A stretch of 64,000 bases of DNA from Callorhinchus milii (GCF_018977255.1 NW_024704742.1:4094001-4158000); one strand, 5' to 3'; positions 804 to 24,984 are shown, counted from the stretch's first letter. The notes: generated by a model not told the origin, from the sequence alone. Program-made: numbers and translations.

Positions 804-908
804 CGTATTCAGCCTGTACTTTGGCAGCAGGTTCAGGCCTGGGCTGTCGTCCTGTGTACAAGAACCTTTTCACTCCAAATGGCTTCAGGCGCTCAGCGAT
901 TGCTAGAC
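804..908 (-). CDS. GRHPR: GRHPR copy A exon 6 (glyoxylate/hydroxypyruvate reductase); gene continues off the left edge
   Basis: 105 nt, AG/GT flanked; (G)[34 protein letters not shown], close to human GRHPR exon 6. Confidence 0.95.
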
Positions 909-1705: not shown

Positions 1706-1794
1706 CTATTCTTCCGAGTCCCACGATGCCCACCGTGCTCTCTTGCAGCCCAAAGCCACACAGCCACAGGGGCTTCCAGGCACTCCAGCCACCA
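1706..1794 (-). CDS. GRHPR: GRHPR copy A exon 5
   Basis: 89 nt, cag/gt; [30 protein letters not shown] with the Rossmann GxGxxG motif. Confidence 0.95.
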
Positions 1795-2419: not shown

Positions 2420-2536
2420 TTCTTCACTTCCTCAACCGCCTCCATCAGTCTGCGGGATGTGGCCAGGAGTAAAGCCACGGTGAGCTCAGCAGTGGCGGCA
2501 GTCAGGACATCTGGGGTGTAGCCCACCCGGATTCCC
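2420..2536 (-). CDS. GRHPR: GRHPR copy A exon 4
   Basis: 117 nt, aag/gtaagt; [39 protein letters not shown]. Confidence 0.95.
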
Positions 2537-3124: not shown

Positions 3125-3197
3125 CTCTTTTTGATTTCGTCCAGGGAGAGATGGTCGAAGCCAACTGAAAGGGTGCTGATAATTTTCAAATTTGGTC
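3125..3197 (-). CDS. GRHPR: GRHPR copy A exon 3
   Basis: 73 nt, cag/gtaa; [25 protein letters not shown]. Confidence 0.95.
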
Positions 3198-4121: not shown

Positions 4122-4252
4122 CTGCCGCTTGTAAAATCTCCTCATCGATCTTGTCCGTTAACATGCAGTACAAGCCGTGCGCTCCCGCAATCCCCTTGAG
4201 CAGCTCCTGGCGGGTCACTGGCTCGTCCGAATCCCACTGGCCGATTGTGCAG
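4122..4252 (-). CDS. GRHPR: GRHPR copy A exon 2
   Basis: 131 nt, cag/gtac; CTIGQWDSDEPVTRQELLKGIAGAHGLYCMLTDKIDEEILQAAG. Confidence 0.95.
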
Positions 4253-5668
4253 CTGAAACGAGACGGGATAACAGTGATGAACGCCACCCTATATTCTCTT
4301 CCCCTCCCTCCCTCCGTCAAGGCACGTTTCAAGACCCTCCTCTTTAACCGAGTCTTTGGCCACACTCCTTACCCCTACCCTCCCTGCCCTCCGCACCCAC
4401 TGATCCCAACCCCCCCCCCCCCACCCCCAGCTCGGTTCCATATCCGTGACTGTCCAGCGCCTTAGGACTTTCTCCCGACGTGAAAGGCGCCTCATACATG
4501 TAGTTTCGTTATTGTTCTCGTGTACTCCCAATGGAAAAGAAATTAAAGGCCTTCAAGAGGGGAGAAGAAAAAAATGGCATTTAAAATGCCACGACAGAAT
4601 AAAGTCACAGGATAAAGTGGATTGACCGTGTATTTTGTGGGCGAAACGCGACAGCCGGTTGCGCATTGCAGTGTCCCACGTGCAGTCATGGCATTTAAAA
4701 TGCCATTGTGAGACAGCTCAGCGGTTTGATAAAGCTCTATATGAAATGCAAGGATTACTATTATTATTAAAATAATACCCTTTAGAACAGAGGATGCACA
4801 AGTGGAATAGTAACATAATGTAAAAACCTGCAACTGTCTGTCCTGTGTTTAGAATACTGCTGTGAACTTAGACGACTGTATCGACAAATTGCAGTAAAGG
4901 GATTTTGTTGTTAAATGCACCAGAGGTGACCCCTCTATCTACATCACTCGCACCCATCAAACTTTGACCAGTCACTGGCAGTGCGCAAAGTCTCTGAGAT
5001 TGCTGAGCTGCACTTGTACAATGCTTATTCTGCACAATTACACTGTGCAATCGGCGTTTCACTTGGGTCAACAAAAACAAGTCATGTGAAAACCTATTCA
5101 GCTCATACTCAGCAGCAGCTTCTGCTGCAAGAGAATAACTGATCCCGTTTGAGAAGAGCAACAACACTCCCCGATCCTAATGCTACAAATATAGCCATAT
5201 ATATTTTCTACCTTACTAAAGTGACTGGCGTACCTAGACGGCCCAGTAAAATCAGAGTGGGACTCTGTGTTTATCAGAACAGCTCGGGAAAATACCTCAA
5301 TGCAGTCAGTGAAAGGTGTGAGAAGTGGTGGGTAAATGTTGAACTGTATTCTTGTAGGGACAGAAAGTTAACGAATGCAACAAGCGCCGATCCTGTATTA
5401 TAGTGTGTGTGACAAACACTATATATGAGGGTCTAACTTGTGAGATTATATGAGGGTCTTAACTTGTGCGATTCAGCGAAATACTTGTAACTAATGAATC
5501 CTGGATGTGTCACGTTTGAATCCTCTGGAACGCCACCTTCGTGGATGCTGAGAGTGAGATCGGTGTCCTGAGTGAAGTTCCAGAGGACCTGCCAGCGAGA
5601 GGCAAGACTCTGCAAATCTTTATACGAGTCTTTAAAAATTAGAGCCAGTTCACGGTGGTAACCAGAGT

Positions 5669-5986
5669 GGAGTCCTGTAGCTCAGTGGTTAGAGCACTCG
5701 CTTTGCCAGTGAGAGACCTGAGTTCAATTCCAGGCAGAGGGTGAAACCTTGGGCAAGTTTCCTTACTCCACACAGAGCCTAATAATAATCCCTCCAAAAC
5801 CAAAAACAATAATAAATTGGTCATTTTCAATCTACGACTGTTTGTGGAACATTGCTGTGCGCAATTGGCTGCCGCGTTCGCCCACAAATATACAGTCAAT
5901 TCACTTTACAGTGTGTTCTGTGAAGCGCTTTGGGACATCCTCCCGACGTGAAAAGCACTATATCAAATACAAGGATTATTATTATA
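5669..5986 (+). mobile_element. tRNA-derived SINE, young short subfamily (full length)
   Basis: A and B boxes; near-identical to the copies at 12317, 17434, 29411 and 59844. Confidence 0.9.
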
Positions 5987-7069
5987 AATATCTGTGTCAA
6001 AGGAACGTGACCGGATATTGTACACATGCGGAGTCCTGTAGCTTAGAGGCTGCCGTGTTTCGCCTTCAAAGCACACAGTCAATTCACTTTACAATATATT
6101 CTGTGAAGCGCTTTGAGATGTCTCGAAGATGTGATAAGGCGCTATATCAAATGCGAGGATTATTATTATTTTTACTACTACACACTACACACACGGATCA
6201 CCCTGGAAACAACGCAACTGGTTCAGATACACGGTGACAAGGTAAAACCGCTTCCAACCGCACATCAAGACACGGAACGACCGGCAACAGCAAGACCTGG
6301 TCAGCGACATGCAACAGAGACGTTTCCAAAATTCGGCACAGTCTTAACATCTTAAATCCTAAAACTAGGTTCACAAAGAACCGTCAGGGCCTGAGGTGCC
6401 GTCAAACAAGGTCAGAGACTAAGAGAAGCCATAAACTCTCTCCGGCTGCCAAAGAGTTCCAAAGTGCTGCGCTCACTGAACACTACGCGGACTTCAATCC
6501 CTTTAAAAATAGATAAACGGGTCACTTCAATCCACGACTGGTCGCGGGGGGACGCCGCTGTGCGCAATTGGCTGCCGCGTTTCGCCCACAAAACACGCAG
6601 TCAATTCACTTTGCAGTCTATCCCGTGGAGCGCTTCGAGACGTCTCGAAGACGTGATAAAGGCGCTGTATCGGATGCGAGGATTATTATTATGATGATGA
6701 TTATTACTGGACCATCGGTAACACTGATAATCCCGCAGTGACCTTGGTCCCTGCCTCCGCCAGACCCGGAGTCCTTATTAACCGGACACTGAGGTGTTGC
6801 GTTTCCTTCTTTCCGTCATAGGATCTTTTCTTCTTTGAGAGAAGTGGAAATGTATATTCTAAGTCAACACACAAACAAACAAATAAATAAATATATTTTG
6901 GGGTGTTTTATTTTATAAAAAAAATAATCCTGCTGTGACCGCAGAGAATTCAGATTAAACCGTTTAGGGAGACTCGCGCCCAGAGAAGGGAATCAGGAAG
7001 GCACATGTTGCAAAAACATAAAACATGGAAAGGATTAGAAAAGGAAACCTTTTCACTTGACTTTGTAAA

Positions 7070-7712
7070 GGAGACACAGAGAGAGACACAGAGAGAGAGA
7101 GACACACATACAGAGAGAGAGACACACACACACACACACAGACACAGAGAGACACACACAGACACAGAGAGAGACACACACACACAGACACAGAGAGACA
7201 CACACACACAGAGAGAGACACACACACACACACACAGAGACACACACACAGAGACACACACACAGACACACACACACAGAGACACACACACACAGACACA
7301 GAGAGACACACACAGACACAGAGAGAGACACACACACACAGACACAGAGAGACACAAACACACAGAGAGAGACACACACACACACACAGAGACACACACA
7401 CAGACACACACACACAGACACAGAGAGAGACACACACACACACACACAGAGACACACACACAGAGACACACACACACAGACACAGAGAGAGACACACACA
7501 CACACACACAGAGACACACACAGAGAGACACACACACACAGACACAGAGAGAGACACACACACACACACAGAGACACACACAGAGAGACACACACACAGA
7601 CACAGACACACACACACAGACACAGAGAGAGAGACACACACAGACACAGAGAGAGACACACACAGACACACACTCACAGAGAGACACACAGACACACAGA
7701 GACACACACACA
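7070..7712. repeat. Compound (CA)n/(GA)n microsatellite in copy A intron 1
   Basis: Direct reading. Confidence 0.95.
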
Positions 7713-7779
7713 GTCTCCCCCCCGGGCCCCAGGCCTCGGGGTTGCGGGTCTGAGCTGCCCCCCCCACCCCCTCACTCAC

Positions 7780-7865
7780 ATCCCGGCCTCGGCCAAGGCC
7801 CTGAAACCCTCGAGAGGGATCCTCCGGCTCACAAACACCTTCAGCAGCTCCTGAGCCATCGCCAT
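7780..7865 (-). CDS. GRHPR: GRHPR copy A exon 1 (ATG 7865; alternative ATG 7859)
   Basis: [28 protein letters not shown], then a gtgagt donor in phase with exon 2; resembles human MKVFVTRRIPAEG. Confidence 0.88.
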
Positions 7866-7874
7866 CCGCCTGAA

Positions 7875-8700
7875 CCCCACCGGCACTGCCCTCCACCGGC
7901 ACTGCCCCTCCAGCCACACCGACACTGCCCTCCACCCACACCGCCACCTACTGCCAGACACCGGCACTGCCCTCCACCCCCACCGGCACTGCCCTCCGGC
8001 CACACCGGCACCCACTGCCCTCCAGCCACACCGGCACTGCCCTCCACCCCCACCGGCACCCACTGCCCTCCGGCCACACCGCCACCTACTGCCAGACACC
8101 GGCACTGCCCACCACCCCCACCGGCACTGCCCACCACCCCCACCGGCACTGCCCACCACCCCCACCGGCACTGCCCACCACCCCCACCGGCACTGCCCAC
8201 CACCCCACCGGCACTGCCCACCACCGGCACTGCCCCTCCAGCCACACCCCCACCGCCACCCACTGCCCCCCACCGGCACTGCCCCTCCAGCCCAACCGAC
8301 ACCTGCAACCCCACCCCCCCAACGGTCCTCCCCACCCCCCCCACCGCCCCCCCACCACCCACCCACACCCCAACGTCCTCCCACCTCAACCCCCCACCAA
8401 ACCCCCACCACCCACTCCACTCAGACCGCCCCCCACCCGCACCGACACCCCAACCCCCACCGCCCCTATCCCCAGCCCCACACCCACCTCACCCCCAAAC
8501 CCCCACCGCCCCCAATGTCCCCCCACCTCACCCAGTCCACACCCGCACCGACACCCCAACCCCCCAACGTCCCCCCCCCCACCGCCCCCCCAACCCCCCC
8601 ACTCCCCACTCAGACCATCCTCCCAGCCCCCAGACCACCCCCCACCACACCCACCAACCCCCCACCCACACCGTCCCCACACCCCCACCGCCCCCACAAA
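7875..8700. repeat. C-rich minisatellite (CCACCGGCACTGCCC units) grading into low-complexity C-rich DNA
   Basis: Direct reading; dense G-runs on the minus strand. Confidence 0.9.
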
Positions 8701-8855
8701 CAGTTGTGGATCGAAGTGACCGAATTATTACGATGATCACTAATAATATGATTTGAAGGGATTATATATATATATATAAAAAGTAACGATTGCGTCAAAA
8801 AAAAAGAAACGTGGATTTCGGGGATTGTGTTTTAGGTGAAGCCCAGACTTTGGGG

Positions 8856-8889
8856 TTTATTTAATGAGGATTAATGATCATCTTTTATT
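8856..8889 (-). terminator. Candidate polyadenylation signals of GRHPR copy B
   Basis: Two minus-strand AATAAA hexamers (8884-8889, 8856-8861) about 90-120 nt after the stop codon. Confidence 0.6.
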
Positions 8890-8974
8890 GGGTGTAACGC
8901 TGAACAGCGCGTCCGCAGCCCATCGCACCGTCGCGCCCGAGTTACGGGCGTCTTCCTGCGCTTCGCGACTCGCT

Positions 8975-9096
8975 TCACAGCGTCAGTTCCTTTGGCATCG
9001 GTGCACCTCTCAGGCCCGACAGGAGATTATTGGCAGCCAATACGGACATGGTCGTCCGAGTCGCGATGGTGGCGCTGGCAATATGGGGCAGAATAA
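8975..9096 (-). CDS. GRHPR: GRHPR-like copy B exon 9 (last coding exon, TGA at 8975-8977)
   Basis: 122 nt; (V)[39 protein letters not shown] with the catalytic His in PHIAS; not in the ORF track. Confidence 0.95.
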
Positions 9097-10247
9097 CTGG
9101 AAACACAAGGCAATATCCATTATTATCTCTCTCTATGTACATATATATATATATATATTGTTTGTTTTAAAAAAAATCATCTCCGCTGAAGCCACTTTTA
9201 CACAAGTGCCAAAAAGGTGCTTTAAAAATTAATCAATCAATCAATCGATCAAAAAAACTCGCGGGTCATGGTTGGGGGGGGGGGGGGGGGGGGTTTGAAG
9301 AAAGAACTCGATCAAAGAAACCTTTAAGGAAGTGTTCGTTGACGTAACCGTTTCTGCCGAGAAACCCTGTACAATGTGCGTGTTATTCTGATGGAGGAAT
9401 CATCGGAGATCTGGTTCCGGACCTCATTGGGGGGGATGAGGTTACAAGTGGGCGATTCCCTGTACAACACTCCAGTTTACGGGACGGTTGAAAGGAGATC
9501 GATGAGCAATTGGAAAGCGCCTCAAGGAGTATGGAGAAACGACCGGGAAGTGCGATTAGAAGATCAGCTGCAATCTACTAAACTGGTGGAACAGACACAA
9601 AAGAGGGCCGAAAGGTTCCTATATCATGGAGTCGTTTATTCCAAATCTCCTGTTGTGTGATGCAGCCACAAGATTAGTGTGTAAAAAAAAAGGGGGGTTT
9701 TCTTCCAGTAGCTGACTTTGGAGAACCATCACCCAACTGAGAAACCCGAGCCTCCAGTCCACGGTGGGAGCAATCCAGCTGTGTCCTGCGGCAACGCAGC
9801 TCGGGTGGGGCAGAGCAATAGGTCTCGGTTGATTGGGAAATCAACCGGAATTCACAGTCCTGCCTGGTTTCTGGGGGTGGGGGATTCATGCTGGAAGGTC
9901 CATCTGGGTGTAAGACAACGGTATGGACTGGATCGAGTTCAGCTATAATGGGCTTTCCTAGATCCACCCTCTCCTCATCACCGACAACAACTAACGTCAA
10001 ACAGCCTATGTAACTCATTGTCTGAATTCGAGACCCTGTCCGGGGTGAAGGGTGTTATATAAATGCAAGTTGTTGTTGAACTCACACGATGAATGATCTC
10101 TCGGTTGAGCGACCCCAGAATGACTGACACCCATGGACCTCGGGAGGAGTCCGTGTCTTCGTAAGGGACAGAATATTGGAAGGTAGAATGTCTAATTTGG
10201 CAAGATGTCAACATTTTGAGGAATACGATCGACTACTTCTGACTTAC

Positions 10248-10378
10248 CGCAGTTTTTCAGAGTGAAGAGAGGGTGGTCAGTGGGCAGTGGCTCAGGAACA
10301 GTGACATCCATTCCTGCTGCTGCGATCTGCCCAGTGGTCAGAGCCTGATACAGGTCCTCCTGATTCACCACAGCTCCT
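10248..10378 (-). CDS. GRHPR: GRHPR-like copy B exon 8
   Basis: 131 nt; [43 protein letters not shown] (DVxxxEP motif). Confidence 0.95.
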
Positions 10379-10639
10379 CTGGAGAACGAAACAAACACTG
10401 ATCAGAGGGTCAGAGATGGCACACTCATTGACAGCAATCATGAGTACATGTAGTGACTGTATTCATAGGTAAACACTGCAACCAATTTGCATGCAACAAT
10501 GTTGGGACAAACAGCCAGAAAGCAAACAAGTTCTATCAAGGATAGTTGGCCAAGGATAGTAGGAGAAGCTCCCTTTCCTTTTTGAATGGGACTGTGGGTG
10601 GGTTTAGGCCTGTAGTTCCATGTCCATCTGAAGGATGGT

Positions 10640-11160
10640 TGACGTTGCAGTACTTTCAAGACTGGTCTGGAGTCTTCTCTCCGCAACCTCATCACCCCCA
10701 TCCTCACCTGGCCCCACCGGCTCCCCGTCACTCAGAGGATGCAGTTCAAGATCCTGGTCCTCACCTTCAAAAGCCCTCTACAATCTCACTCCTCTCTACC
10801 TCTGTGACCTCCTAACTCCCTACCAACCTGTCCGCGCTCTCCACTCAGCGGGCTCCGGCCTGCTTTACGTCCCCCGCCTCGCGCGCCCCACCATTGGCGG
10901 GCAGGCCTTCAGCCTCTCTCCTCCCACCCTCTGGAACACCATCCCACAATCCCTCCGCCTCGCGCCCCTCTCTTACCTCTTTCAAGACCCTCCTCTTTGA
11001 CCGTGCCTTCGGTCACCCTCCTACCCCTACCCTCCCCGCCCTCCACCCCTCCTGATCCCAAACCCCAGCTCGGGTGCAGATCCCTGACTGTCCAGCGCCT
11101 TGGAACGTCCCCTCTGACCTGAAAGGGGCTGCACAAATGTAATTTGTTGTTGTTGTTGGG
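10640..11160 (+). mobile_element. L2-clade LINE 3' fragment
   Basis: Degenerate ORF2 end (PITPIL..LP..QFKILVLTFKAL), C-rich 3'UTR, stem-loop and (GTT)n tail. Confidence 0.8.
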
Positions 11161-11201
11161 GGTTCACTTTCTGGCTGTTTGTTATTTTATCAGTGTCCCA
11201 C

Positions 11202-11337
11202 CTGCTCGTGTTTATTAACACAGCCGTCTTTTTCATCTTGGAAAACAAATCTTTGTTGTACAAGCCCTGCGTTTCAGGGGTCAAGGCACAATGTAAGGTT
11301 ACAAAGTCAGATTCCTCAGCCAGTTTGTCCAAAGGCA
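11202..11337 (-). CDS. GRHPR: GRHPR-like copy B exon 7
   Basis: 136 nt; [46 protein letters not shown]. Confidence 0.95.
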
Positions 11338-12165
11338 CTGCAACAAACAGAAGACAGAAAGGCTCGACTTATACCACCTCAAACAACTGATGTTTACCAT
11401 GAATCCGATCCAATTGAGTGTGATGGAAAACTGGTACCCGAAAGATAAAAGGCGGATAATCCCGATATGTTTAATTGAGATCATAAGGCATCATATCGTG
11501 GAGCTCAGTGGTTAGAGCACTCGCCTCGCAAGCGAGAGGACCCGGGTTTGATTCCCGACCGGGGAGAAACATTGGTCCGAGTTTCCTTACTCCACACGCC
11601 TCTGTTTACCTGGCAGTAAGTAGGAACCCGGTTGCAAGTCGATTGGTGTGGATCACTTTTCCGGGGGTAATAATTTCTTCAAAACAAAAATAAGTTAAAG
11701 GAAAAACAAGATCAGAATAATTTGGTCACTCGATCCGTGACCGTTTGTGAGACGCTGCTGTGCCCAGTTGGCTGCTGGGTTTCGCTTCACTGCAACTTCT
11801 GTCCTGCATTTTCCACCCACTGTTCCACTGTTAGTGGGACTTCAGGCAGAATAGCAATGGGGACGCAGTGAAAGGGATAGAACAATTAACATTAGTACCA
11901 GGAGAAGCATAAAACACAAGCACTGTCCCTGATGGAACTATGTGCGTGCTTTTGTGTGTGTGTGTGTGTGACAAATCATGAACGCACTAACGCACTATAG
12001 CCTGCAGACTGGGTGCGTGTCTGACCACTACAGTTAATTTAACACCTTTGACGAACACATACATGGAAAGGATAGCGACATGGCGTCCGATGGCCAAAGC
12101 TCTTTTTCCGCTGTTAGATGTACAAATACTAATGGAGTTAATGTGCGGTTGTTGTCCGTTCTTAC

Positions 12166-12270
12166 CGTACTCGGCCTGTATCTGTGCAGCAATATCCGGC
12201 TTAGGCTCAAAATCTGTGTACAGAAACTTCTTCACACCAAATGGCTTCAAGCACTGTCCAACGGCTATAC
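12166..12270 (-). CDS. GRHPR: GRHPR-like copy B exon 6
   Basis: 105 nt; (G)IAVGQCLKPFGVKKFLYTDFEPKPDIAAQIQAEY. Confidence 0.95.
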
Positions 12271-12316
12271 CTGTAGGAGAGAGAAAATCAATATTGAACG
12301 TCACTTTACTGGGATA

Positions 12317-12585
12317 ATTTCCAGGCAGAGGGCGAAACCTTGGGCAAGTTTCCTTACTCCACACAGAGCCTAATAATAATCCCTCCAAAACCAAAAACAA
12401 TAATAAATTGGTCATTTTCAATCCACGACTGTTTGTGGGACATTGCTGTGCGCAATTGGCTGCCGTGTTCGCCCACAAATATACAGTCAATTCACTTTAC
12501 AGTGTGTTCTGTGAAGCGCTTTGGGACGTCCTCCCGACGTGAAAAGCGCTATATCAAATGCAAGGATTATTATTATTATTATTAA
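12317..12585 (+). mobile_element. 5'-truncated young SINE next to the copy B exon 6 acceptor
   Basis: Near-identical to 5725-5986. Confidence 0.85.
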
Positions 12586-13077
12586 TAATCCCTTCCCCCC
12601 AAAAATGTGGTCACTCAATCTACGGCTGTTCGTGGGACGCTGCTGTGCGCAATGGGCTGCTGAGTTTCTCCCACAAAATATGCAGTTGATTTGTTTGACA
12701 GTATATTCTGTGAATCCCTTTGAGACGTCTCGAAGACGCCATAAGGCGCCTATAAAAATATAAAATGCAAGGACTATCATTACCCCCCCAATAAGAAAAC
12801 GGATGAAAAAAAATATAAAAATGCAGGAATTAAAGATTCCTTTCAAAAAAAAAAAATGACGGAAACCACACAAGGAAAAACCTCCCGACGTTGGAAAAGA
12901 GCTGAAAAGGATCGCAGTCCAATCACAATTAGTTTAAGGATCCTTTAAGAAAACTGCGGACCGGATAAATAATTCGCCAGGTCGATGGTTTTAAAAGATT
13001 CCGAAACCACAAGGTTTGGATAGCGCTTTTCACGTCAGCGGGACACGCCCCGAGCTTGGCGATTCCCAGGGTCTTAC

Positions 13078-13166
13078 CTATTCTTCCCAGTCCCACAATT
13101 CCCACCGTACTGTTGCTCAGTCCGTAGCCGCACATCCACAGGGGCTTCCAAGTTCCCCAGCCACCA
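13078..13166 (-). CDS. GRHPR: GRHPR-like copy B exon 5
   Basis: 89 nt; [30 protein letters not shown]. Confidence 0.95.
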
Positions 13167-14262
13167 CTGAAACAGGTCAGACCAGAGGCACGAGTTACAT
13201 CACAGCCGGGCAAGATTGAAAAGATGTGACAGTAGTAATAGAATTCCTTGTTTTTAAATTTAAAAAATTCTTGTTTCAGATCTAACGATCTTTGGAACGC
13301 GCTGGTGTGATCAGATGCAAAGTGCTTTACGGCACTGTTTGCGGGACGCTGCTGTGCGCAATTGGCCGCCGTGTTTCGCCCGCGTAATATACGGTCAATT
13401 CACTTTACACCTGTGAAGCGCTTCGAGAGTTAGCGTCTCGAAGGTGTGATAAGGCGCCGTATCAAAAAACAAAATGTGCAAGGATTATTGAAACGCAGTA
13501 GTTACTTTGGGGTGAACAGGACAGACCGACAAGTGAGGCGAGCGGCCAGTTTTATCTGGGGCAATGTCGGCCAGGACACCGGGAAACACACCAGTCTCTT
13601 TTCGAATAGGGTCATGGGATTTTTAACATCCACCTGAACGGGAAGACCGTTCCTCTGTTTAACATTATAACCAACTCTGACAAAACACTGGGAAGTCAAC
13701 CTGTACCATGAGCTCAAAAGCCTTGACATGGGCCTTGAATTCCCACCCTCCTGACCTGCAGACTGACCCCCAGCAGCTGAAACAGGCTGACAAACAATTA
13801 TCCAATAAATACTGGTTTCACATTAATCTAAATAAATTGGAAAAATGTATAATTCCCCTTGTGTCATGGCTTCCAATAGACAGGGACCTCTTTACTGAAA
13901 GCCTTAGGTCTAAATCATCTTTTGTTAACAAGTCTATGATAAATCCCAGCGATAAAACCTTGCAACAATGACGAAACGGCACGCAAAAAAAATCTCAAAG
14001 CAACTTCAGATAACGTGTTACTTTTGAGGGGTTGAGGGAAGAAGGTTTTTTTTTTTTTTTTTTTTTTGAGGGTGGGGGTGTGATCACCTGGATGTGAAGG
14101 GAATGGGAATCGAGCCACTTTAGTAAAAGGACAGGTCAGCCCCGAGTCAATCGAACCGAAATTTATTAAGATTAAGCGTTTACACGTGGTTAACAGAATC
14201 CGCGTAACAGACCCCGATCGCCAGTTCTAACCGGACACCCAAGTTGATGAAAACAAACTCAC

Positions 14263-14379
14263 TTTTTGGCTTCAGCCACCGCCTCCATCAGTCTGCGGGA
14301 TGTGGCCAGGAGTAAAGCCACGGTGAGCTCAGCGGTGGCATCAGTCAGGACATCTGGGGTGTAGCCCACCCGGATTCCC
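14263..14379 (-). CDS. GRHPR: GRHPR-like copy B exon 4
   Basis: 117 nt, aag/gtgagt; [39 protein letters not shown]. Confidence 0.95.
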
Positions 14380-14944
14380 CTTCAACAACACGGTGAGAAT
14401 TATTACACATCAACGTTCCAGGTTACCTCCAGCCTAAATAAGGATTAAAGCCTCCGCAATTTGATCAAGGAATCTCGTTCTTAAGTTTGCTTGAAATAAC
14501 ATTTTAACAACAACAGCAGCAACATGCACTTATGTAGTTACCCTTCCAGGCAGGGTAGCGTCTCAGAGAGCTTAACAGCGGTGGAGCCTGACTCCGAACC
14601 GGGGTGGTGGGGGGGGGGGGGGGTGAAGGTGACCGTAAGCACAGTCGAAGAGGAAGGTTCTCAGGCGGGACTTGAAACAGGGGAGAGAGGGGGCAAGGCG
14701 GAGGGATTGAGGGAGAGCGTTCCAGAGTTTGGGGGCGCAGTGGCTGAAAGCGCAACAATACCATACAGTCAAAACCTGTTGTGTAAAAAAAAGTTGTGAT
14801 AACGTTTCCATTATTCTGTTTATCTGATTTCTACTTAATTTCCTGCGTCGATGAAATACCTCTCTGTACTTTCAGACATAAATTCAGGCGCTATATCAAA
14901 TGCAAGTATTATTATATCAAGTGAAAGTTCAGATGAGCAATTAC

Positions 14945-15017
14945 CTTTTTTTGATTTCATCCAGAGAAAGGTGATCATGTCCCACAGACATAGTGCTGAT
15001 CACTTTCAGATTGGGGC
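14945..15017 (-). CDS. GRHPR: GRHPR-like copy B exon 3
   Basis: 73 nt; [25 protein letters not shown]. Confidence 0.95.
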
Positions 15018-15229
15018 CTGTGAACAAGAAATGGTTTGGAGGTGAATTCATTCATGGCAAGAGTTCCAATTTCTAGTTTCAAAGAAACGTTTTAAGAGAA
15101 AAACATTTTTACTTTCCAATACAGTAACTAACCTCTCTTTGGCTGACAGCACAGTACACCGACAACACCCTATTTAAGAGGTAAATACTCCACTTGCCGC
15201 TTAGTGCTGAAACCTTTCTTATGTGGCCA

Positions 15230-15770
15230 TGTTCGGAGAAAGGCAACACCTCCCTCATTTCCACAGTGAAGCAGTCGAGGACAGGACCACCAAGGTTGAG
15301 GTGAGATGGTGGAGAAGGATAGAATGGTCAACAAGTGTCAAAGGCAGCAGAGAGGTCAAGGAGGATGAGGAGACATAGGGAGCCCTGGTCACAGGTGGAC
15401 AATATGTCATCTGTCACACTTTGTCCAGGGCTGTTTCTGTGCTGTGGGCGGCACGGAAACCCAATTGGAGGAGTTCGTAGAGAGAGTGGCGGAAGAGGAA
15501 GGAGCGAAGCTGGGAATGAACGACTTGTTCCAGGGCTTTGGAAAGGAAAGGGAAGTTGGAGATGGGGCGGTAATTGGAGAGCAGAGATGGGTCCAGGGAA
15601 TGTTTTTTTTTATTTATTAAGGATGGGGGGTGATGACGGCTGTTTTTAAGGGGGTGAGAACAGTGCCAGTGGACAAGGAGAGGTTGATGATTGCTGTGAG
15701 TAGACGAGCAAGGAGGTGGAGCTGAGAGGCAAGGAGATGGGTAGGGATGGGGTCGAGGAAGCAGATGGAA
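15230..15770 (-). mobile_element. L2 LINE RT-region fragment
   Basis: Translates in pieces to LDPIPTHLL..IINLSLSTG..LKTAVITP and LLDLSAAFDT. Confidence 0.75.
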
Positions 15771-17163
15771 GAAAGAAAATATTTTGTTGCGTCTGTCCTG
15801 AAATTGCCCTTTGTAACTCCAAACCTATTTAAACCTGTAAACTCTACTGCCTTAGTGCATCCTAAAGTAAAGTAAAGGTTTACTCTCTGAATCCCATTTA
15901 TAATTTTATACACATCTATAAAGGTCCTCTCCTGAAGTGCTCTAACCTGTCTAATCCTTTTCGCCTTTTCCTCTAACACTGGGGTTCATCCCTGCTGTTT
16001 TCCTCTTCTAGAGCTTGGGAACCCCCTCACCTTCTACCACAGAAACCAGAACCGTATATTGTACGGAAATCTCACCTGCCTGTTTTCAAGTAGATGGGGT
16101 ACTACTCAAAATGAGAAGGAAGTCTCCCCAGGCTGTTCTGTTAAACAATCCGCCAGATAAATTGATTATTCACGCCATGCCGATTTGTGAACCTTGCAGT
16201 GTGCAAATTCATTGCTGTAGTTACCTACAAATACACATTGCCCTTGACAGCAGTTAACGGCGAAGCACTTAGAGGCTTTGATGTTCTAGGCACTACAACA
16301 AGGGCAAGGATTCTGATCATCCTCATGTAAAGTGCAGCATTTGTGTTGTACAGAATGAATGTACTGCATCAGTGGTTCTACTTCGGTAGTTAAATTACGA
16401 TTGGAATAGCATTACAACCCTGACGTGTCGCCCCTATTTCTCCAAGAGCAAACAGAGTAATGGATATCCAGAGCTTAAATGGTACCATCCCATCCGGGAA
16501 GGACACTCCGAATACTTTATCTCAGGGCAAATATACACCTTAAGATCCGTTGCAAAGCAACAGCGAACTGAACTGTTCCAGACATCACAAAATTCCAACC
16601 AAAAACACAAGGACTACAGCAACTTGCATTTATAATCGCGTCCCAGAGCGCTTTACAGTGGTGGAGCACGACACCAAGCCAGGGGGAGGCGAGCGGAGGC
16701 ACGGTCGAAAAGGAAGTTCTTCAGGCGCGACCTGAAGATGGGGAAGGAAGGGGCGAGGCGCAGGGATAGAGGAAGAGTTTTCCAGAGTTTCGGGGCGTAG
16801 TGGCTGAAAGCGCGCAATGTAATGAAAATATTACATTTAAAAAAAACCTTAGTGGCAACTGATACTGAACCCTTTAATCAGTCAAAAGGCTGGAAGCCTA
16901 TTCGTGATTGAATCACTTTTTTTTTTGAAATAGTGACACACTGGGCACTACTTAATCCTCAGGCTTTGCCTGTGAATTTCCTTGGGTGTGCGTAATAAAA
17001 AAAAACCCAACAAGAAAACCCTTTTGACTGGAGTATCATTAAAGCAGTTCGTAGAAAATCCTGGAAAACAGCTAATATGGCCTGAAAGTCAAGCGGAATA
17101 AAGATTTGTGCGCATTAATGCGTTACGGGGCTCGTGTCACGCAGATTCGCTTCATTCTCATAC

Positions 17164-17294
17164 CTGCAGCGTCCAAAAGTTCTTTGTCGATTTTTTCGGT
17201 CAATAAGCAGAACAGGCCATGGGCTCCAGCAACTTGCTTCAGCAGCTCAGACCTGGGGACGGTTTCATCAAAATCCCACTGCGTCACCTCACAG
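17164..17294 (-). CDS. GRHPR: GRHPR-like copy B exon 2
   Basis: 131 nt; [44 protein letters not shown]. Confidence 0.95.
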
Positions 17295-17433
17295 CTGAAA
17301 TACACACCGGAATCAACCGTTCCGGACAACTGATGTCAATTGCGGCAAAAACGAAATATCGCTAAAAGATACACAGGCCGGGCCAAGAAGTCGTGATACC
17401 ATTACAAAGTCCAAGAGAAAATGATGATTTTCT

Positions 17434-17716
17434 GATGATAATAATAATAATCCTTGCATTTGATATAGCGCTTTTCACGTCGGGAGGACGTCCCAAAGCA
17501 CTTCACAGAACACACTGTAAAGTGAATTGACTGTATATTTGTGGGCGAACGTGGCAGCCAATTGCGCACAGCAATGTCCCACAAACAGTCGTAGATTGAA
17601 AATGACCAATTTAATTATTGTTTTTGTTTTTTTGGAGGGATTATTATTAGGCTCTGTGTGGAGTAAGGAAACTTGCCCAAGGTTTCGCCCTCTGCCTGGA
17701 ACTGAACTCAGGTCTT
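17434..17716 (-). mobile_element. Young SINE, head truncated at a (GA)n tract
   Basis: Reverse complement of the 5669 family. Confidence 0.85.
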
Positions 17717-18449
17717 GATGAGAGAGAGAGAGAGAGAGAGAGAAAAAAATACGTTCATTTAAATAAATCTATCCCACGTCTTCGAGATACAGTGTCGCAT
17801 TTTGTGAACTGGGACATGGTCTGTATCTTCAGGTGGTCTTGAACGTCTCTTGTGTCTGTACGGACGCATCTTCCCTCCCCAACCCCACGCTGTCCGATTA
17901 CCATCGCGCTGATACATTCGAGCTCCGCTCCACGTGCTCCAGGAATATGGATTTAATGCCCTGATTAAATAATGACACGAAGTCTCTCTCTGCACGTCGT
18001 GCTGTAAGAGCTCACGTTGAACAACCACTCCCCCCCAACCCCCACCCCCCAGCCCATTCCAAAAGATCCACCAACCCCTCCCTCGCGGGAAAGCGATGAG
18101 ATTGCAACTGGCTTGAAATCCGTCAGGATGTTTCCTGGCTCCCGATACTCGCACGAACAGGCCAGCAGAGGCTGCACAAGAGCCACGCTCACTTCCGATG
18201 CCTAAGACCCCCAACCCCCCCCCCCCACCCCACCCCCAAAAAAAAAAATTCCACACGTTCGAATGGCAATGGAAGATGCTCGATGGGCAATGTCTGGCTC
18301 AGACGACACGCGGGGTTGGGAGTTGTCTGTGCTTTTTACACTGAGCCGTCTTTTTTTTTAAGTCACTCCAATCCGAAGAGCTCTCAGCTTCGAGACGCCC
18401 GACTTCACCGAATTGAAATCGTTGCATGCGTTCAATGCGGGAACACACG

Positions 18450-19060
18450 ACAACAACAACGACGAAACCTTTTGATATACTTATATACCGGCCTTCGTAC
18501 CGAGCGGTGTCCCGGAGCGCTTCACAGTGGGGGGAGTCTGACAAACGAGCCAGGGGGAGAGAGGGAGGGGGTGAGGTGACCCAGAGTGCGATCAAAAAGG
18601 AAAGGTCTTTAGGGGGGATTTGAAGGTGGGGAGGGAGAGAGTTCCAGAGTTTTGGGGGCGCGGTTGAAGGCACGGCCACCGATGGCGGATCGGTGGGCAC
18701 GCGGGGCAAACAGGAGGCCAGAGCCAGCGGGTGGTGGAGTGGTGGGGGGGGGCGGGGGTGAGCAGGTCGGAGAGGTCGGGAGGTGCGAGGACGTGAAGGC
18801 AATTGGAAACCATTGAGAGGATCTTGAAATCGATCCGTTCGGTGATTGGGAGCCAGTGGAGCCCGGCAAGGACTGGCGTGATGGGGGTCCGGAGTTTCGT
18901 GCGGGCGAGTATCCGGGCGGCAGAGTTTTGAATGAATTGGATATTGTGTACGGTGGAGCTGGGGAGACCAGCGAGGAGGGCGTTGGAATAGTCCAGCCGG
19001 GAAAAGTGACAAAGGTGTGGACGAGGGTTTCAGCTGTTTCGGTTACGAGGCACAGGCCAA
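18450..19060 (-). mobile_element. L2 LINE 3' fragment
   Basis: ORF2 C-terminal remnants (APKLWNSLP) and a (GTT)n tail. Confidence 0.75.
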
Positions 19061-20164
19061 TAATGTACTACTACTATTAATAATAATAATAATATCGATA
19101 AGAGTCTTTAACAACCAGAGGACATCCCAAACACATCACAGGATATACTGTAAAGTGGTGTGACTGTGTATTTTGTGGGTAAACACATGTACAGCAGGAT
19201 TGAGCAGGGGCACTTTTTTTTTCCCCCTTTAAAAACAATTTTCTATTTGTCCCCTGAACTTTTCCTCCTATGAAAACGAGATCGGTTACATTTTCGACAG
19301 CAGCACACAGCGCTTGCTTCAGCGAAACAGGTTAAAGTCCCTTCACACAAGGCACCGGGTAATGTGAGCCGCAACCATGTAGTGGGATGCCTATAAAGTG
19401 AGCCTGTAACGAAGGCCACGGGGTTAGAGCCCACTGTATGAGCCCCAATCCTTGTCCGACACTTGTATCTGGGGAACGGCATCAACCCACAAACGGACCT
19501 TGGAGAGGGTTCAAGGAAGAGTGACGAGGATGATTCCCGGGAGTCCGAGTTCAATGTGTCCTCTGAGGGTAAATATAACGGGAGACACACTTTTTCCTTT
19601 ACCCCCCACCCCCCGCCCCCCCCTCACCCCCAAACAAACGCTGAGAGACAGGTGATGGAAGCGGGATTTTTGACATTGTTTGCAACCGCAGAACTGGAGC
19701 TAAAAGGTTCAAAAGTCTCAAAACGATGGAAGATGGGGACGAAATGTTGGGCAGGTGGAAGAAAGGTTACATTCCAACTGAGTAATGGTTTACGTACAAC
19801 GGAACCAAACGAGTTTGTGTCTGTGAACGATCCTAATGCCCTTACAGGGAGAGTGGCAAAACTCAGGCAAACACTGGGCTCTCAGGGGACGCGATGACTG
19901 GACTGGGAAGGGGAGCGGTGGAGGGATGAAAGCTGCTTGTGAGGAGAGTAACTTTTCCGTGGTTCCTGAGCAGGGGGAGTGGGGGGGAATTTTTTTCATT
20001 GTATTTAAATAAATTTCAGGCCCATCGCCAGTTTGCACACACGTACACAGATAGGATACGGAATGCCTTGCCAGGAGGAGTGGTTCAGGCTGAATCCTTA
20101 TTAGCTTTCAAATGGGAACTAGATAAATACCTAAACAGGAGTAAACAACTGGGGCGTGGGGAAA

Positions 20165-20535
20165 GGAGTCCTGTAGATCAGTGGTTAGAGGACTCGCCTC
20201 ACAAGCGAGAGGACCTGGGTTCGATTCCCGGGCAGGGGCCGAAATGTTGGGCAAGTATCCTTACTCCACACGCCTCTGTTTAGCCATCAGTCAGTAGGAA
20301 CCCGGCTGTTAGTCGATTGGCGGATCGCTTTTCCGGGGGCAATAATCCCATCATATAAAAAAAATTTGGTCACTCAATCCACGACTGTTTACGGGTCATT
20401 GCTGTGCGCAATTGGCTGCTGTGTTTCGCCTACAAAATATACAGTCAATTCACTTTACAGGATATTCTGTGAAGCGCTTTGAGACGTCTCGAAGACGTGT
20501 TAAGGCGCTATATCAAAAACAAGGGCTATTATTAT
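20165..20535 (+). mobile_element. tRNA-derived SINE, long subfamily (similar copies near 21051-21437 and partials near 11500 and 27155)
   Basis: tRNA head with GGTTCGATTCC B box, an extra ~60-nt middle segment, and an ACGTC-TCGAA-GACGT tail. Confidence 0.85.
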
Positions 20536-21499
20536 AATAAAGGGCAGGTAAATGGGACTGAACAATTTTCTTAAAAGAACCAGTACCGACTTAAAAGGGC
20601 CGAATGGCCTTCTTCTGTTCTGTGAATGTTATAGTTCTAAAATTTCTAACACAGACCTTGTGCACAGCGCGAGTAACTCTCACAGGTCAGATACAACGTG
20701 CTCGGTCAAGGCGCGAGCACAATACAGATCAATCTTTTTACACAAGACTGTAAATGCAGCACAGAGAAGAGCGCAGATCTCTTTACCGTGGACATGTACA
20801 GCACAGGTCAGAGACACCAGAGAGTGGGAATCAATAAATGTTTCTCAGACTGGTAGGATGTGTCGAGTGGTGTGCCGCAGGGGTCTGCACTGAGATCTCT
20901 ACTTTCTAATGATAATCCTTACATTTGATATCACATCGTATCACATCAACACACACCACCTTCTGTCTCAGCGGCAAGAGCGTTACCAACTGAACCGGGC
21001 TGACAGGGGCATAAATCAGAGGATTTGTATCCAATACTAGATATTAAATTGGAGTCCTGTAGCTTATTGGTTAGAGCACTCACCTCGCAAGCGAGAGGAC
21101 CTGGGCAGGGGGGAAATCTTAGGCAAGTTTCCTTACTCAACACACCTCTGTTTACCTCGCAGTAAATAGGATCCAGATTGCTATTTGATTGGCGGATCGC
21201 TTTTCCAGGGGTAATAATAACACCTTCAAAAAATTAATAAAATAAATAATATGGTCAATAATAAACTCAATCCACGGCCGCTTGTGGGACACTGCTGTAC
21301 GCAATTGGCTCCTGCATTTCACCCACAAAATATACAGTCAATTCACTTTACAGTATATCCTGTGAAGCGCTTTGAGACGTCTCAACAAATTGATAAGGCG
21401 CTGTATCAAATGTAAGGATTGTTATCATTATTATTATTTTCTTGGGAAACTGACTATATAAGACTTCAGGAGGGCATTGATAGACTTGTGATGGGAAGC

Positions 21500-22010
21500 A
21501 GTGTGATCCAAAGCACAGTCGAAAAGGAGGGTCTTGAGATGGGTCTTGAAGGAGGCAAGGAAAGGGGGCGAGGCGGAGGGACTGTGGGATGGAGTTCCAG
21601 AGGGTGGGGGCAGAGTGGCAGAAGGTCCACCCGTCAATGGTGGGACTGGCAAGGCAGGGGACGTGAAGCAGGCCTGAGCCCGCTGAGCGGAGGGAGCGGA
21701 CAGGATGGTAGGGGGTTAGGAGGTCACAGAGGTTGGGGGGTGGGGGGGGAAAACAAGACCGTGGAAGGCTTTAAAGGTGAGAACCGGAATCTTGAACTGT
21801 ATCCTCTGTGTGATGGGAAGCCAGTGGAGTCGGGCGAGGATGGGGGTGATAGGGTCGCGGAGCCTGGTACGGGAGAGGACACGGGCTGCAGAGTTCTGGA
21901 TGATCTGCAGCCTATGGAGGGAGGAGTTGGGGAGGTCTGACAAGCAGGGAGTTTGCATAGTTGAGCCTTGATGTAATGAATGTGTGTATGAGGGTTTTGG
22001 CTTCCACTAA
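21500..22010 (-). mobile_element. L2 LINE fragment
   Basis: LHRLQIIQNSAARVLSRTRLRDPITPILARLHWLPITQRIQFKIPVLTFKA. Confidence 0.8.
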
Positions 22011-22872
22011 AAAGATATATTGTTCACGTAAGCACTTTTCTCTGGAGATGAGAGCCACGTCAAAGAGTTCGTAACCGGTATAAAACAGAGCTGAAGCTTT
22101 GCGCCCCGGCATGGTAGATGAAGAAGTTTTTAACCTGCAGTCGGAAACCTGAGAGACAATGAGAGATAGGTCTCCACCACTGGTGTTTTCTAAGGTGGTA
22201 TCAGCCAAGATGGTCAAACATTATTGGGATTACATGAAATTACATAGAGTCACTATGCCAAAGATGAATAGATAGTTACTATGAGTTACAACAGATAAAT
22301 GAGGGCTCTTTTAATATCCCACCCTTCTCGAGAACCCTGGATCTTCACTCCTATCACAAAATAAATCGTAATCTTAAACCCGTTGTTGCTAAAAGTTTAG
22401 GAGAAATCAGATTTTTCCAACGGGGATCAGACATCGGAGTTTTCTGCAGAAACTGTACTAACAAGTTCCGAATGAGCATAACTAGATGAGAGGAGCAAAA
22501 TATTACACACTTTACAAAAAGAACCCAATGAAACATTTAGCCTCAGCTCAGATCAGACGAGATTCTCCTTGTTGTTTATTTCCCTTAAATTCTTCTCTGG
22601 CTCACATCTGCCGTGTAAAAAAAAAAGTGACTGCATTTGACAGCAACTCTAAAGTACTCTGAGACATTTGGACGTGATAAGGTTCTTTTCTTCTATGTTG
22701 GGACAGACCATTCCATTGTACTATTAACCGCGTCTGTCTTTGATAAGATAAAACTAACTCCAAGTCTGAAATACTCTGAGCAAAATACTCGACTTTTGAT
22801 GTGCTTTCTCAGCAGCGCAAACGTGGCAAGAGCTCCTCTCGGACGTTCGCAAATCAAACCGATCTCCCTCCA

Positions 22873-23060
22873 TGTGTCAGCCTGGCTCAGTGACAGCACT
22901 CTCGCCTCGCAGTCACAAGGCTGTGGGTTCAAGCCCCGCTTTGGGACTTGGAATCACGCAGTCTAAGCTGACACTCCAACGCAGTGTTTGGTTTTGCGCT
23001 AAATTTTCGGAGGTGCCGTCTTTCGGATGAGTCGTTAAACAAAAGGTCCCGTTTGACTCC
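22873..23060 (+). mobile_element. Older Deu-domain-type SINE fragment (relatives near 13545-13760, 32980-33172, 40090-40280, 49430-49620, 56992-57180, 58240-58440)
   Basis: tRNA-like head followed by GGAGGTGCCGTCTTTCGGATGAG..GTTAAAC; relatives carry AAAGATCCC..GGCAC and GTGTCCTGGCCAA, resembling the AmnSINE/SacSINE Deu domain. Confidence 0.6.
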
Positions 23061-24585
23061 TCGCATTATTAATGTTTGTGGGGCGTTGTTGGCATTGACT
23101 GACTGCCATGTTTGCCTGTACAACACTGTTCTATATTAAATACAGGTTTACCTTTCAACCGCCTTCCTTTTTGTAATTGCATCATTGATTTAGGTTGCGC
23201 CCACCCTCTACTTCGGTGTTTTTCAAGGGAATAGTCATCTTTTGCCCACAAAATAAACAGTCAATTCGCTTTACAATATATTTTGTGAAGCGATTTGAGA
23301 GGTCTCATCGACATGATAAGGCAATATATCAAATGCAAGGATTATTATTATCTTCCCTCTATCACATTTATTTCAAAGAAACATGGATTTTTTTTTCTCC
23401 CGAATCTCCAGTCTTAAATTCCCTCCTCATCCACATTAATTCACTATTTATCTCATCTGCTTGTAAAATGCTGCTCCTTTCTAACATTCAATTCATTTCT
23501 AACTACGTTCATTTTGTAAAATGTTTTGAGATGTTTCTTTTGCATGCTCAACCCCATTACAATTGTGTTTTTCCCTATACTTGGTCCCATCGGCTCAGTT
23601 TCCATCAACTTTTAACTATAAATCTGAAAATTCGTTATTGAACACACAATAGAATTGAATACAAATCTGCGATGAAAGAGATTAAGGTTCTGATAATTTA
23701 GGGATTGGAAAGAGATGGAAAGGACCAGAGGTAGAGACAAGGAGATGAATCAAATTCTCGCCTTCCCCGATTTCCTTCATTTGATCTGCCTGGGCCAACG
23801 TCACTTAACAACAACAACAGCAACATTTCATTGATAGAGCGCCTTTCACGTCGGGAGGACGTTCCAAGGCGCTGGACTTAAACCGATTACCAGGAATTGA
23901 ATAAAAGAATCTGGACTCCTTGGAGCTGAAACGGCTTCAAGGGCACACGCTGGGCAACAGAATGTAAGAATCGAGCCAATGCTTATATTATATGAGGTTA
24001 GGACGTCCTCTCGACGTGAAAGGCGCTATACAAATGTAACCTTGTTGTTGTTGTTAGTAGGAATTCTTATATTACGCCTTAAGAAATTCCAGTCCTTAGA
24101 CCCCTGATCACAAGATGGGTTTGGAGGAAAGAAATATCTTTTTGACCCGTCCAATCCTATCTTCCAGAACACCCATTCTACCATCGATCCAGTCATTGGC
24201 TACCATCCCGGTGTTGTCCTGAAATTGCCCCATTATAACTCAAAACCTACATCATTGTATCTCGGTGCCTCCTACAAGAGTATAGGTTTTTTTGGGGGGA
24301 GGGGTTAACCCTTAGGACCTTTTCTCACAGCAGGCACTAGCTGTTCAACCATAGTTCTCTTCGCTTCTGGTGACTGGAGAATGAAGTTCGATGAAACAAT
24401 CCAGCAGAAAGGAGCTTTCACAGGATGCCTACTATAGCACTGGGGAGCAGGGCAGGGCGGCTCTGGGTGAGGGACATCAAGTCAGTATTGCAGTACAATA
24501 AGAGTGATGTGGCTGCCGTTATGAGCCGTCTCCCGTGCGTGTGTGTGGATGGATGTCCACCTGAGTTGCTTTGCCCTTTACTTAC

Positions 24586-24749
24586 ATGCCAGAGTCCTGC
24601 AGCAAATTCACTCCCTCCTGTGGGACCCGACGGCTCACATACACCTTGGCCAGTTGGTGTTGACTCCGCTTCATGACTTGCGCTGTGTGACTGCTCCCCA
24701 CAGCCCTGCTCAGGTGTGCCAGCACCTTCACACTATGCCCCAACCACAT
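24586..24749 (-). CDS. GRHPR: GRHPR-like copy B exon 1 with N-terminal extension (ATG 24749; other in-frame ATGs at 24674 and 24860)
   Basis: MWLGHSVKVLAHLSRAVGSSHTAQVMKRSQHQLAKVYVSRRVPQEGVNLLQDSG, then a gtaagt donor in phase with exon 2; joined CDS is 1068 nt with no stop. Confidence 0.85.
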
Positions 24750-24984
24750 GCCTTCAGCTGCTCGCACACCAGCAGTGCAAACACAGACTTTGCAATTTGC
24801 TTTTTCGAGTCCTTTTGGGGAGAGAGTGAGTTTGTGCAAACAAGAGGAGGTTCCAAACATACTAACCTTTTGGCCAATAACACATCTCACCTGGACAGTC
24901 AGCAGAGCACTACCCTGGGTCTTAGAGCCCCACACTGAACCCAACGCCCCTGGACACACTAAAGGGTCAACTTATGTAATAATA

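Follow-up and report, generated by a model that had tools for sequence, protein, structure and literature searches.

GRHPR is the gene of primary hyperoxaluria type 2, and the accessible portion of PMC11670150 puts its NADPH dependence and dual location at the centre of models of glyoxylate detoxification. The same portion gives the human enzyme an affinity for NADP(H) more than 100-fold above that for NAD(H), and reports human GRHPR, which is of the type that we call A here, in both cytosol and mitochondria. GRHPR also takes part in the mitochondrial step of hydroxyproline catabolism, according to the part of PMC8779045 at our disposal. In the wider GHRB subfamily cofactor choice is mixed, GRHPR_HUMAN preferring NADPH and HPR1_ARATH NADH, and specificity is set by the betaB-alphaD loop, where a conserved Asp goes with NADH preference (PMC6303947, in the sections available). 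Zebrafish has two genes, grhpra and grhprb, which have already been targeted together in crispants, both being taken as NADPH-dependent GRHPR isoforms in the available text of PMC8943054.

The stretch of DNA that we have analysed (the window: 64,000 nucleotides of Callorhinchus milii, GCF_018977255.1 NW_024704742.1:4094001-4158000, with positions counted from its first letter) is vertebrate DNA rich in short interspersed repeats. It carries two GRHPR genes as a tandem pair, with GRHPR-B head-to-tail upstream of GRHPR-A on the same strand. Both are already annotated in C. milii and, since this holds for GRHPR-B, the novelty lies in the functional prediction and not in the gene. The gene models were guided by database proteins retrieved with the exon on which the first-pass annotation had focussed (12166-12270, minus strand), and in the resulting protein-guided splice model this interval is exactly exon 6 of GRHPR-B. 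The parts of this gene are:

24586..24749, minus strand: GRHPR-B exon 1, coding part; ATG at 24749-24747; encodes the extension, residues 1-25 (splice model, sequence, contigs)
17164..17294, minus strand: GRHPR-B exon 2, 131 nt (splice model and contig joints)
14945..15017, minus strand: GRHPR-B exon 3, 73 nt (splice model and contig joints)
14263..14379, minus strand: GRHPR-B exon 4, 117 nt (splice model and contig joints)
13078..13166, minus strand: GRHPR-B exon 5, 89 nt; W168 and most of the GLGRIG motif (splice model, contigs)
12166..12270, minus strand: GRHPR-B exon 6; post-GLGRIG helix, strand beta-B (KFLYT) and cofactor loop DFEPKPD (translation, splice model, contigs, structure model)
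12212..12214, minus strand: GRHPR-B Asp211 codon GAT, equivalent to human Gly184 (sequence, alignment, model)
11202..11337, minus strand: GRHPR-B exon 7, 136 nt; catalytic Arg272 at its end
10248..10378, minus strand: GRHPR-B exon 8, 131 nt; includes catalytic Glu301
8975..9096, minus strand: GRHPR-B exon 9, coding part; catalytic His320; Ala322 codon at 9079-9077; TGA stop at 8977-8975

With nine exons on the minus strand, GT-AG ends at every intron and an open frame of 355 aa, the gene is intact, as had been claimed before. Translation of the minus strand between 12164 and 12271 gives GIAVGQCLKPFGVKKFLYTDFEPKPDIAAQIQAEYG, and the readings YTDFEPKPD in B and YTGRQPRPE in A (838-852), with the Asp codon of B at 12212-12214, are exact. 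The same annotation had put this Asp 18 residues past the last Gly of GLGRIG; there are indeed 18 residues in between, so the Asp itself is the 19th. GLGRI is encoded by exon 5, and the codon of the last Gly of the motif is split over the exon 5/6 junction. The model protein is identical to P0187 (XP_042192440.1 “GRHPR-like”, AFK11050.1 and AFM87300.1, all from Callorhinchus milii), the sequence being common to several protein records of the species, and it differs from P0005 at 4 residues. Within the window there are two copies of exon 6 and no third. P0004 (113 aa) is a probable annotation artefact, in which exon 6 of B is read on into the next intron (11990-12496).

Spliced contigs mapped on 5100-25099 came from four of the six small-share runs, in two studies, and are presumed to represent RNA; the four high-share runs (X7-X10) were left out of the contig comparison. 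All eight introns of GRHPR-B are bridged exactly at the modelled junctions, seven of them in 4/4 runs and intron 8 in 3/4. The joints are 9096 to 10248, 10378 to 11202, 11337 to 12166 and 12267(+3) to 13075(+3) in the first half, and 13166 to 14263, 14378(+1) to 14944(+1), 15016(+1) to 17163(+1) and 17294 to 24586 in the second, the last of them (intron 1) being present in 4/4 runs. Their CT..AC ends on the plus strand are GT..AG on the gene strand. Contigs also cover 24586-24849, extending the 5'UTR to at least 24849, and carry the 3'UTR to at least 8871. GRHPR-B is transcribed and spliced, judging by these presumed-RNA contigs, and the lack of expression that had been named earlier as a possible outcome is contradicted by the bridging of every intron. 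Formally, a processed and spliced DNA copy could also be the source of the contigs. They cannot rank A against B in expression.

The corresponding parts of GRHPR-A, together with the block that separates the two genes, are:

7780..7865, minus strand: GRHPR-A exon 1, coding part; ATG at 7865-7863; transcript covered to about 7907 (gene model)
4122..4252, minus strand: GRHPR-A exon 2, 131 nt (gene model)
3125..3197, minus strand: GRHPR-A exon 3, 73 nt (gene model)
2420..2536, minus strand: GRHPR-A exon 4, 117 nt (gene model)
1706..1794, minus strand: GRHPR-A exon 5, 89 nt (gene model)
804..908, minus strand: GRHPR-A exon 6, 105 nt; NADPH-type loop GRQPR at 852-838 (gene model, translation)
7877..8695, strand not assigned: minisatellite between the 3' end of B and exon 1 of A; units of 11-138 bp

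Exons 7-9 of GRHPR-A lie beyond the window start. Residues 1-200 are identical to XP_042192434.1 of C. milii, the minus-strand translation of 802-909 is the 36-residue exon 6 peptide, and contigs cover exon 1 (7780-7906/7907) in three runs. GRHPR-A is the orthologue of human GRHPR and retains the Gly-Arg-x-x-Arg loop; the NADP(H)-type loop that had been attributed to it is the GRQPR encoded at 852-838. Exons 2-6 have the same sizes in both genes (131, 73, 117, 89, and 105 nt). P0069 (339 aa, copy A) is another probable annotation artefact, with an alternative first exon at 5127-5198 and exon 2 extended into the intron. The minisatellite takes up the ca. 1 kb that separates the two genes. Its plus strand is C-rich, its transcribed strand G-rich, and it contains a 22-bp unit repeated 15 times plus related units; such a G-rich block could be a pause/termination element or a promoter of A. 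Intron 1 of GRHPR-A contains an (AC)n array of ca. 600 bp (7074-7712). The rest of the window (25000-64000) is repeat-rich and becomes AT-richer near its end, and since none of its 111 open frames of at least 70 aa had a Pfam match, no neighbouring gene was identified there.

Among solved structures the best relative of GRHPR-B is human GRHPR (2GCG/2H1S, E 1.8e-147, the next match being at 2e-74), which also heads the Foldseek matches with 67-69% identity and is the sole match when exon 6 alone is searched. The Pfam domains PF00389 and PF02826 (catalytic and NAD(P)-binding) are found on P0005 and its orthologues, and the GxGxxG motif appears in B as GLGRIG at residues 187-192. No gap interrupts the loop in the alignment with human GRHPR (2GCG), which pairs D211 with G184, F212 with R185 and K215 with R188, so that B has D-F-E-P-K where A has G-R-Q-P-R and the G-R-x-x-R signature of NADPH enzymes is absent from B. 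Arg185 and Arg188 of the human loop are the residues that we take to touch the 2'-phosphate of NADP(H). We used an AlphaFold model of GRHPR-B built on 49 homologues (mean pLDDT 83), in which residues 182-186 form strand beta-A, 187-202 the glycine-rich turn with its helix and 206-210 strand beta-B, making D211 the first residue after beta-B. In Rossmann folds, the acidic residue that specifies NAD(H) comes directly after this strand. D211 is at that position in the model, an equivalence that rests on the predicted secondary structure, and, given the strand boundary of the model, it presumably matches position by position the acidic residue of 1GDH and of phosphite dehydrogenase (Glu175). GRHPR-B probably prefers NAD(H), and as a prediction from sequence and model this preference is well founded; the rule behind it is a correlation. 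We found no study of the kinetics, cofactor or location of a B-type enzyme in the open full-text literature, the scope of the search, with subscription journals and supplements outside it; PMC8943054 was the single functional paper to turn up.

The homologues show how widespread this loop is. A search with the exon, for which a 48-residue read-through of the exon 6 stretch was used, yielded 15 proteins, each from a chondrichthyan and each with YTDFE.KP. Full-length queries were the chimaera B (best 120 of 5584 matches) and the platypus B (best 120 of 7494), and with the exon search they gave a set of 182 proteins (P0005-P0186), of which 181 have the GxGxIG motif. Asp follows Y-[TSAN] in 126 of these 181 listed homologues (median length 356 aa) and Gly in 52 (median 329 aa); the others are an insect protein with Ser, a partial tinamou sequence with Asn and a Xenopus tropicalis record with an aberrant segment. 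The Asp type is present in chimaera, sharks, rays, coelacanth, lungfish, caecilians, salamanders, frogs, turtles, alligator, echidna, platypus, bichir, sturgeon, gar and many teleosts, where NCBI names it “glyoxylate reductase/hydroxypyruvate reductase b”. GRHPR-B is 79-86% identical to its shark and ray orthologues, and with the platypus B as query the echidna protein scores 97% and those of amphibians ca. 82%. Not one marsupial or placental protein was present among the best 120 relatives, in annotated proteins, of either the chimaera or the platypus B. Any therian orthologue should rank high in the platypus list, so none is annotated in the collection, and B is apparently missing from therian mammals as far as the annotated proteins searched can tell. 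This fits the first-pass annotation, which knew of no counterpart at the human locus. However, GRHPR-B is no oddity of the elephant-shark locus, its wide distribution having been missed at that stage. No cyclostome sequence was identified among the homologues.

For the tree, 56 proteins (31 with Asp and 25 with Gly) were picked by hand for taxonomic spread from the chimaera-B listing and the rest were left out; the careful IQ-TREE run was made without the N-terminal and loop columns, and with the scale-insect outgroup dropped. Even without the loop, a single branch separates the Asp type from the Gly type (UFBoot 100 / SH-aLRT 99), and the split requires a single change in 100% of 200 bootstrap trees. 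A vertebrate tree scoring the loop type had been proposed as a check, and its outcome is two ancient groups. The chondrichthyan B clade is supported at 99/93 in the careful tree, and the chondrichthyan A clade at 99 in the quick tree. The root is unplaced because the sole outgroup, the scale-insect protein, has a branch length of 3.7 in the quick tree. Given that cartilaginous and bony vertebrates are found on both sides, the tree dates the B paralogue to before their split, and by the same sequence comparison GRHPR-B is the orthologue of teleost grhprb and of tetrapod “GRHPR-like” proteins. Judged by identical lengths of chromosome-scale contigs, A and B genes are on one contig in Heptranchias, Heterodontus, Scyliorhinus torazame, Mobula, Narcine, Latimeria, Protopterus, Rhinatrema, Ambystoma, Bombina, Ascaphus, Spea, Dendrobates and Ranitomeya, and also on a 106-kb contig of Mustelus and a 712-kb contig of a tinamou, and they are on separate contigs in Colossoma, Metynnis and Carassius.

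Several smaller observations accompany this picture. The only bird B-type record listed, P0179 (Nothoprocta ornata, partial, 300 aa), comes from a gene on the same 712-kb contig as the A-type gene of that species and has Asn in place of Asp (YTNSAVRPE), which may reflect relaxed constraint in birds. Outside the vertebrates, scallop (P0210/P0351) and ascarid nematode (P0214) “GRHPR-like” proteins have Asp plus a hydrophobic residue in the loop (YYDVAE, YSDVFR), so the Asp state may be older than vertebrates and not their invention. Within the elephant-shark pair, exon 4 of A and B (2409-2557 against 14253-14400) has 92.6% DNA identity over 149 bases, flanking intron bases included, and exons 3, 5, and 6 have 74-81%; for so old a duplication, the identity at exon 4 suggests that gene conversion has acted on the tandem pair. 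Of the core exons, exon 6, which encodes the loop, shows the greatest divergence from A to B (21/35 residues), and yet it is conserved within each (30/35).

We consider it likely that GRHPR-B is best explained as an ancient NAD(H)-preferring GRHPR paralogue, less surely a mitochondrial one; its gene structure, expression, orthology, conservation and Asp position are established, and from them we infer the cofactor preference, the compartment and the physiological role. The case for a compartment of its own comes from the N-terminus. In all 31 B-type proteins sampled it is ca. 25 residues longer than the A-type start, beginning with MW in 21 of them, with a net charge of +1 to +5 over residues 1-20 and a first acidic residue usually at position 13 or later, and these proteins have an internal Met in line with the A-type initiator. 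In C. milii the extension is MWLGHSVKVLAHLSRAVGSSHTAQV, followed by Met26; the model gives it a helix at 4-16, after which comes a low-confidence linker, and pLDDT is below 50 over residues 1-29. We predict that it is a mitochondrial presequence, with a confidence only slightly better than even. Judged by eye, neither the extension nor the C-terminus KELTL fits the peroxisomal signals PTS1 and PTS2. Some A-type records also have long basic N-termini, namely P0039 (Erpetoichthys), P0063 (Geotrypetes), P0050 (Mobula) and P0040 (Acipenser); these may be alternative first exons or model errors, and they bear on the route of A-type enzymes into mitochondria.

The enzyme could also be NAD(H)-preferring without being mitochondrial, that is, a cytosolic hydroxypyruvate reductase or D-glycerate dehydrogenase whose extension is put to other use (regulation, stability, another compartment) or is bypassed at Met26. 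Met26 (24674-24672) is in frame and aligns with the A-type initiator, a UniRef record of 330 aa (P0189) begins exactly there and a Pelodytes isoform has 329 aa (P0053); the first two of these facts make two translation starts possible, and B may be translated from both, the second giving a cytosolic form. Acidic residues at extension positions 13-17 in many species point in the same direction. Against this, the position, length and basic character of the extension are kept across the 31 sampled B-types, from chimaera to platypus, all seven teleosts sampled have no acidic residue for 17-43 residues, and the first ATG of the transcribed exon is the one used in the model, preceded by 100 nt of 5'UTR with no other ATG. 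We regard a purely non-mitochondrial B as unlikely, if far from negligible.

A reading that we find improbable is that the Asp has switched nothing, B using NADPH equally well or better and the loop being a case of tolerated drift or of affinity tuning. It draws on the position of human Arg188, which stays basic in the B type (Lys in C. milii, Arg in 108 of 126), so that some NADPH binding could remain in B, and on the available sections of PMC6303947, in which cofactor use within GHRB is variable and motifs are imperfect predictors. However, among the matches listed Asp is found in 126/126 B-type and Gly in 52/52 A-type proteins, and fixation of each residue in its own group indicates selection and not drift. 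The partner Arg185 is, moreover, lost in every B-type listed, the residue after the Asp being V (82), I (16), F (15) or else T, L, M, or A, and Arg in none of the 126, as against Arg in 36 and Ser in 12 of the 52 Gly-type proteins. The same pairing extends across the wider family, for which we took 135 representatives of at least 280 aa from the query, P0192 (the copy A protein), and 150 listed matches. The loop column is acidic in 32 of them and non-acidic in 102, and Arg comes next in 3/32 of the former and 51/102 of the latter. An acidic residue without Arg in one set and a non-acidic residue with Arg in the other is the signature expected of an NAD/NADP switch.

Still less probable, in our opinion, is that B has diverged chiefly in substrate, toward another 2-oxo acid, with the change of Gly295 to Ala beside the catalytic His as the key difference. 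Only seven columns were diagnostic in the comparison of 123 B-type with 52 A-type proteins. Two of them separate the types completely (100%/100%), D211/G184 and A322/G295, the second of them lying two residues past the catalytic His and just ahead of a Ser (HIASAT in B, HIGSAT in A), and Phe310 of B against Leu283 of A is nearly diagnostic. The changes at A322 and Phe310 are what such a reading can build on. It leaves the loop change unexplained, though, and it has against it the 67-69% overall identity to human GRHPR and the invariance of the catalytic triad and of the two residues named for substrate selection: R272, E301, H320, L86, and W168 of B, equivalent to human R245, E274, H293, L59, and W141 (an offset of 27 in the alignment to 2GCG), are the same in all 49 aligned A- and B-type proteins, bearing out the first-pass annotation, which had listed the catalytic Arg, Glu and His and the substrate Leu and Trp as kept. 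The Gly295Ala change, like the conserved N-terminal extension, is a feature of B that goes beyond that annotation. That B is a decaying or silent duplicate, of which the sole hint is the Asn of the partial tinamou sequence in another species, has a negligible probability and is ruled out for C. milii by the open frame with canonical splice sites, the spliced contigs over every junction, the 79-86% identity to shark and ray orthologues and the several C. milii records with the same sequence.

Returning to an NAD(H)-preferring B, its mechanism may be sketched as follows. The Asp carboxylate would hydrogen-bond the adenosine ribose of NAD(H) at its 2'- and 3'-hydroxyls and would repel NADP(H) through the 2'-phosphate, which would also lose one ligand with Arg185 (replaced by Phe in this protein, by Val, Ile, or Leu elsewhere). 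With triad and substrate residues intact, B should carry out the same hydride transfer as GRHPR, and it would be an NAD(H)-preferring glyoxylate/hydroxypyruvate reductase (D-glycerate dehydrogenase) of unaltered catalytic chemistry. If the extension is a presequence, B would be a matrix enzyme and A a cytosolic NADPH enzyme, and matrix NADH would serve to reduce glyoxylate that mitochondria derive from hydroxyproline, or hydroxypyruvate from a mitochondrial aminotransferase. A dedicated mitochondrial paralogue in non-therians would fit the picture given in the part of PMC8779045 available. More tentatively, and with more doubt than confidence on our side, the jawed-vertebrate ancestor might have divided the reduction of glyoxylate and hydroxypyruvate between two enzymes suited to the redox chemistry of their compartments, A with NADPH in the cytosol and B with NADH in mitochondria. 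Therians would then have lost B, leaving one NADPH enzyme to serve both compartments. Were this true, the loss of B in therians would account for the puzzling presence of human GRHPR in two compartments, and primary hyperoxaluria type 2 models in fish and frogs would own a back-up enzyme that is absent in humans.

What emerges is a second paralogue, vertebrate-wide, that is predicted to use another cofactor and may work in another compartment. Because both GRHPR genes count, work on zebrafish, Xenopus and other non-therian models needs re-reading. The fixed Asp/Gly difference (123 B-type against 52 A-type proteins) offers enzymology a natural cofactor-switch pair, and the apparent loss of B in mammals is a dated gene loss that could be tied to the known species differences in the site of glyoxylate handling.

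Compared with the systems described so far, GRHPR-B is closest to human GRHPR, with which it shares the fold and domain pair, the catalytic residues and the positions of Leu59 and Trp141, and from which it differs by Asp for Gly184, Phe for Arg185, Lys for Arg188, Ala for Gly295 and the addition of the N-terminal extension of ca. 25 residues. In the loop it resembles instead Arabidopsis HPR1, 1GDH and phosphite dehydrogenase, which also end strand beta-B with an acidic residue and have no Arg next to it, although enzymes of this kind are only ca. 30-33% identical to B. 1GDH is titled NAD-dependent D-glycerate dehydrogenase in the PDB, and the E175A/A176R variant of phosphite dehydrogenase is titled “in complex with NADP”; going by these titles, the Asp/Arg pairing that separates the two vertebrate types would be analogous to the engineered cofactor switch of the latter enzyme. 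The teleost grhprb and the tetrapod and lobe-finned-fish “GRHPR-like” proteins, known from database annotations, are B itself, in the same clade (100/99), with the loop Y-[TSAN]-D-[VIFLMT], the median length of 356 aa and the same type of extension. Within this group, chondrichthyans have D-F-E-P-K where bony vertebrates mostly have D-[VI]-A-P-R, and the A and B genes are on different chromosome-scale contigs in the teleosts seen, whereas chimaera, sharks, coelacanth, lungfish and amphibians keep them on one contig.
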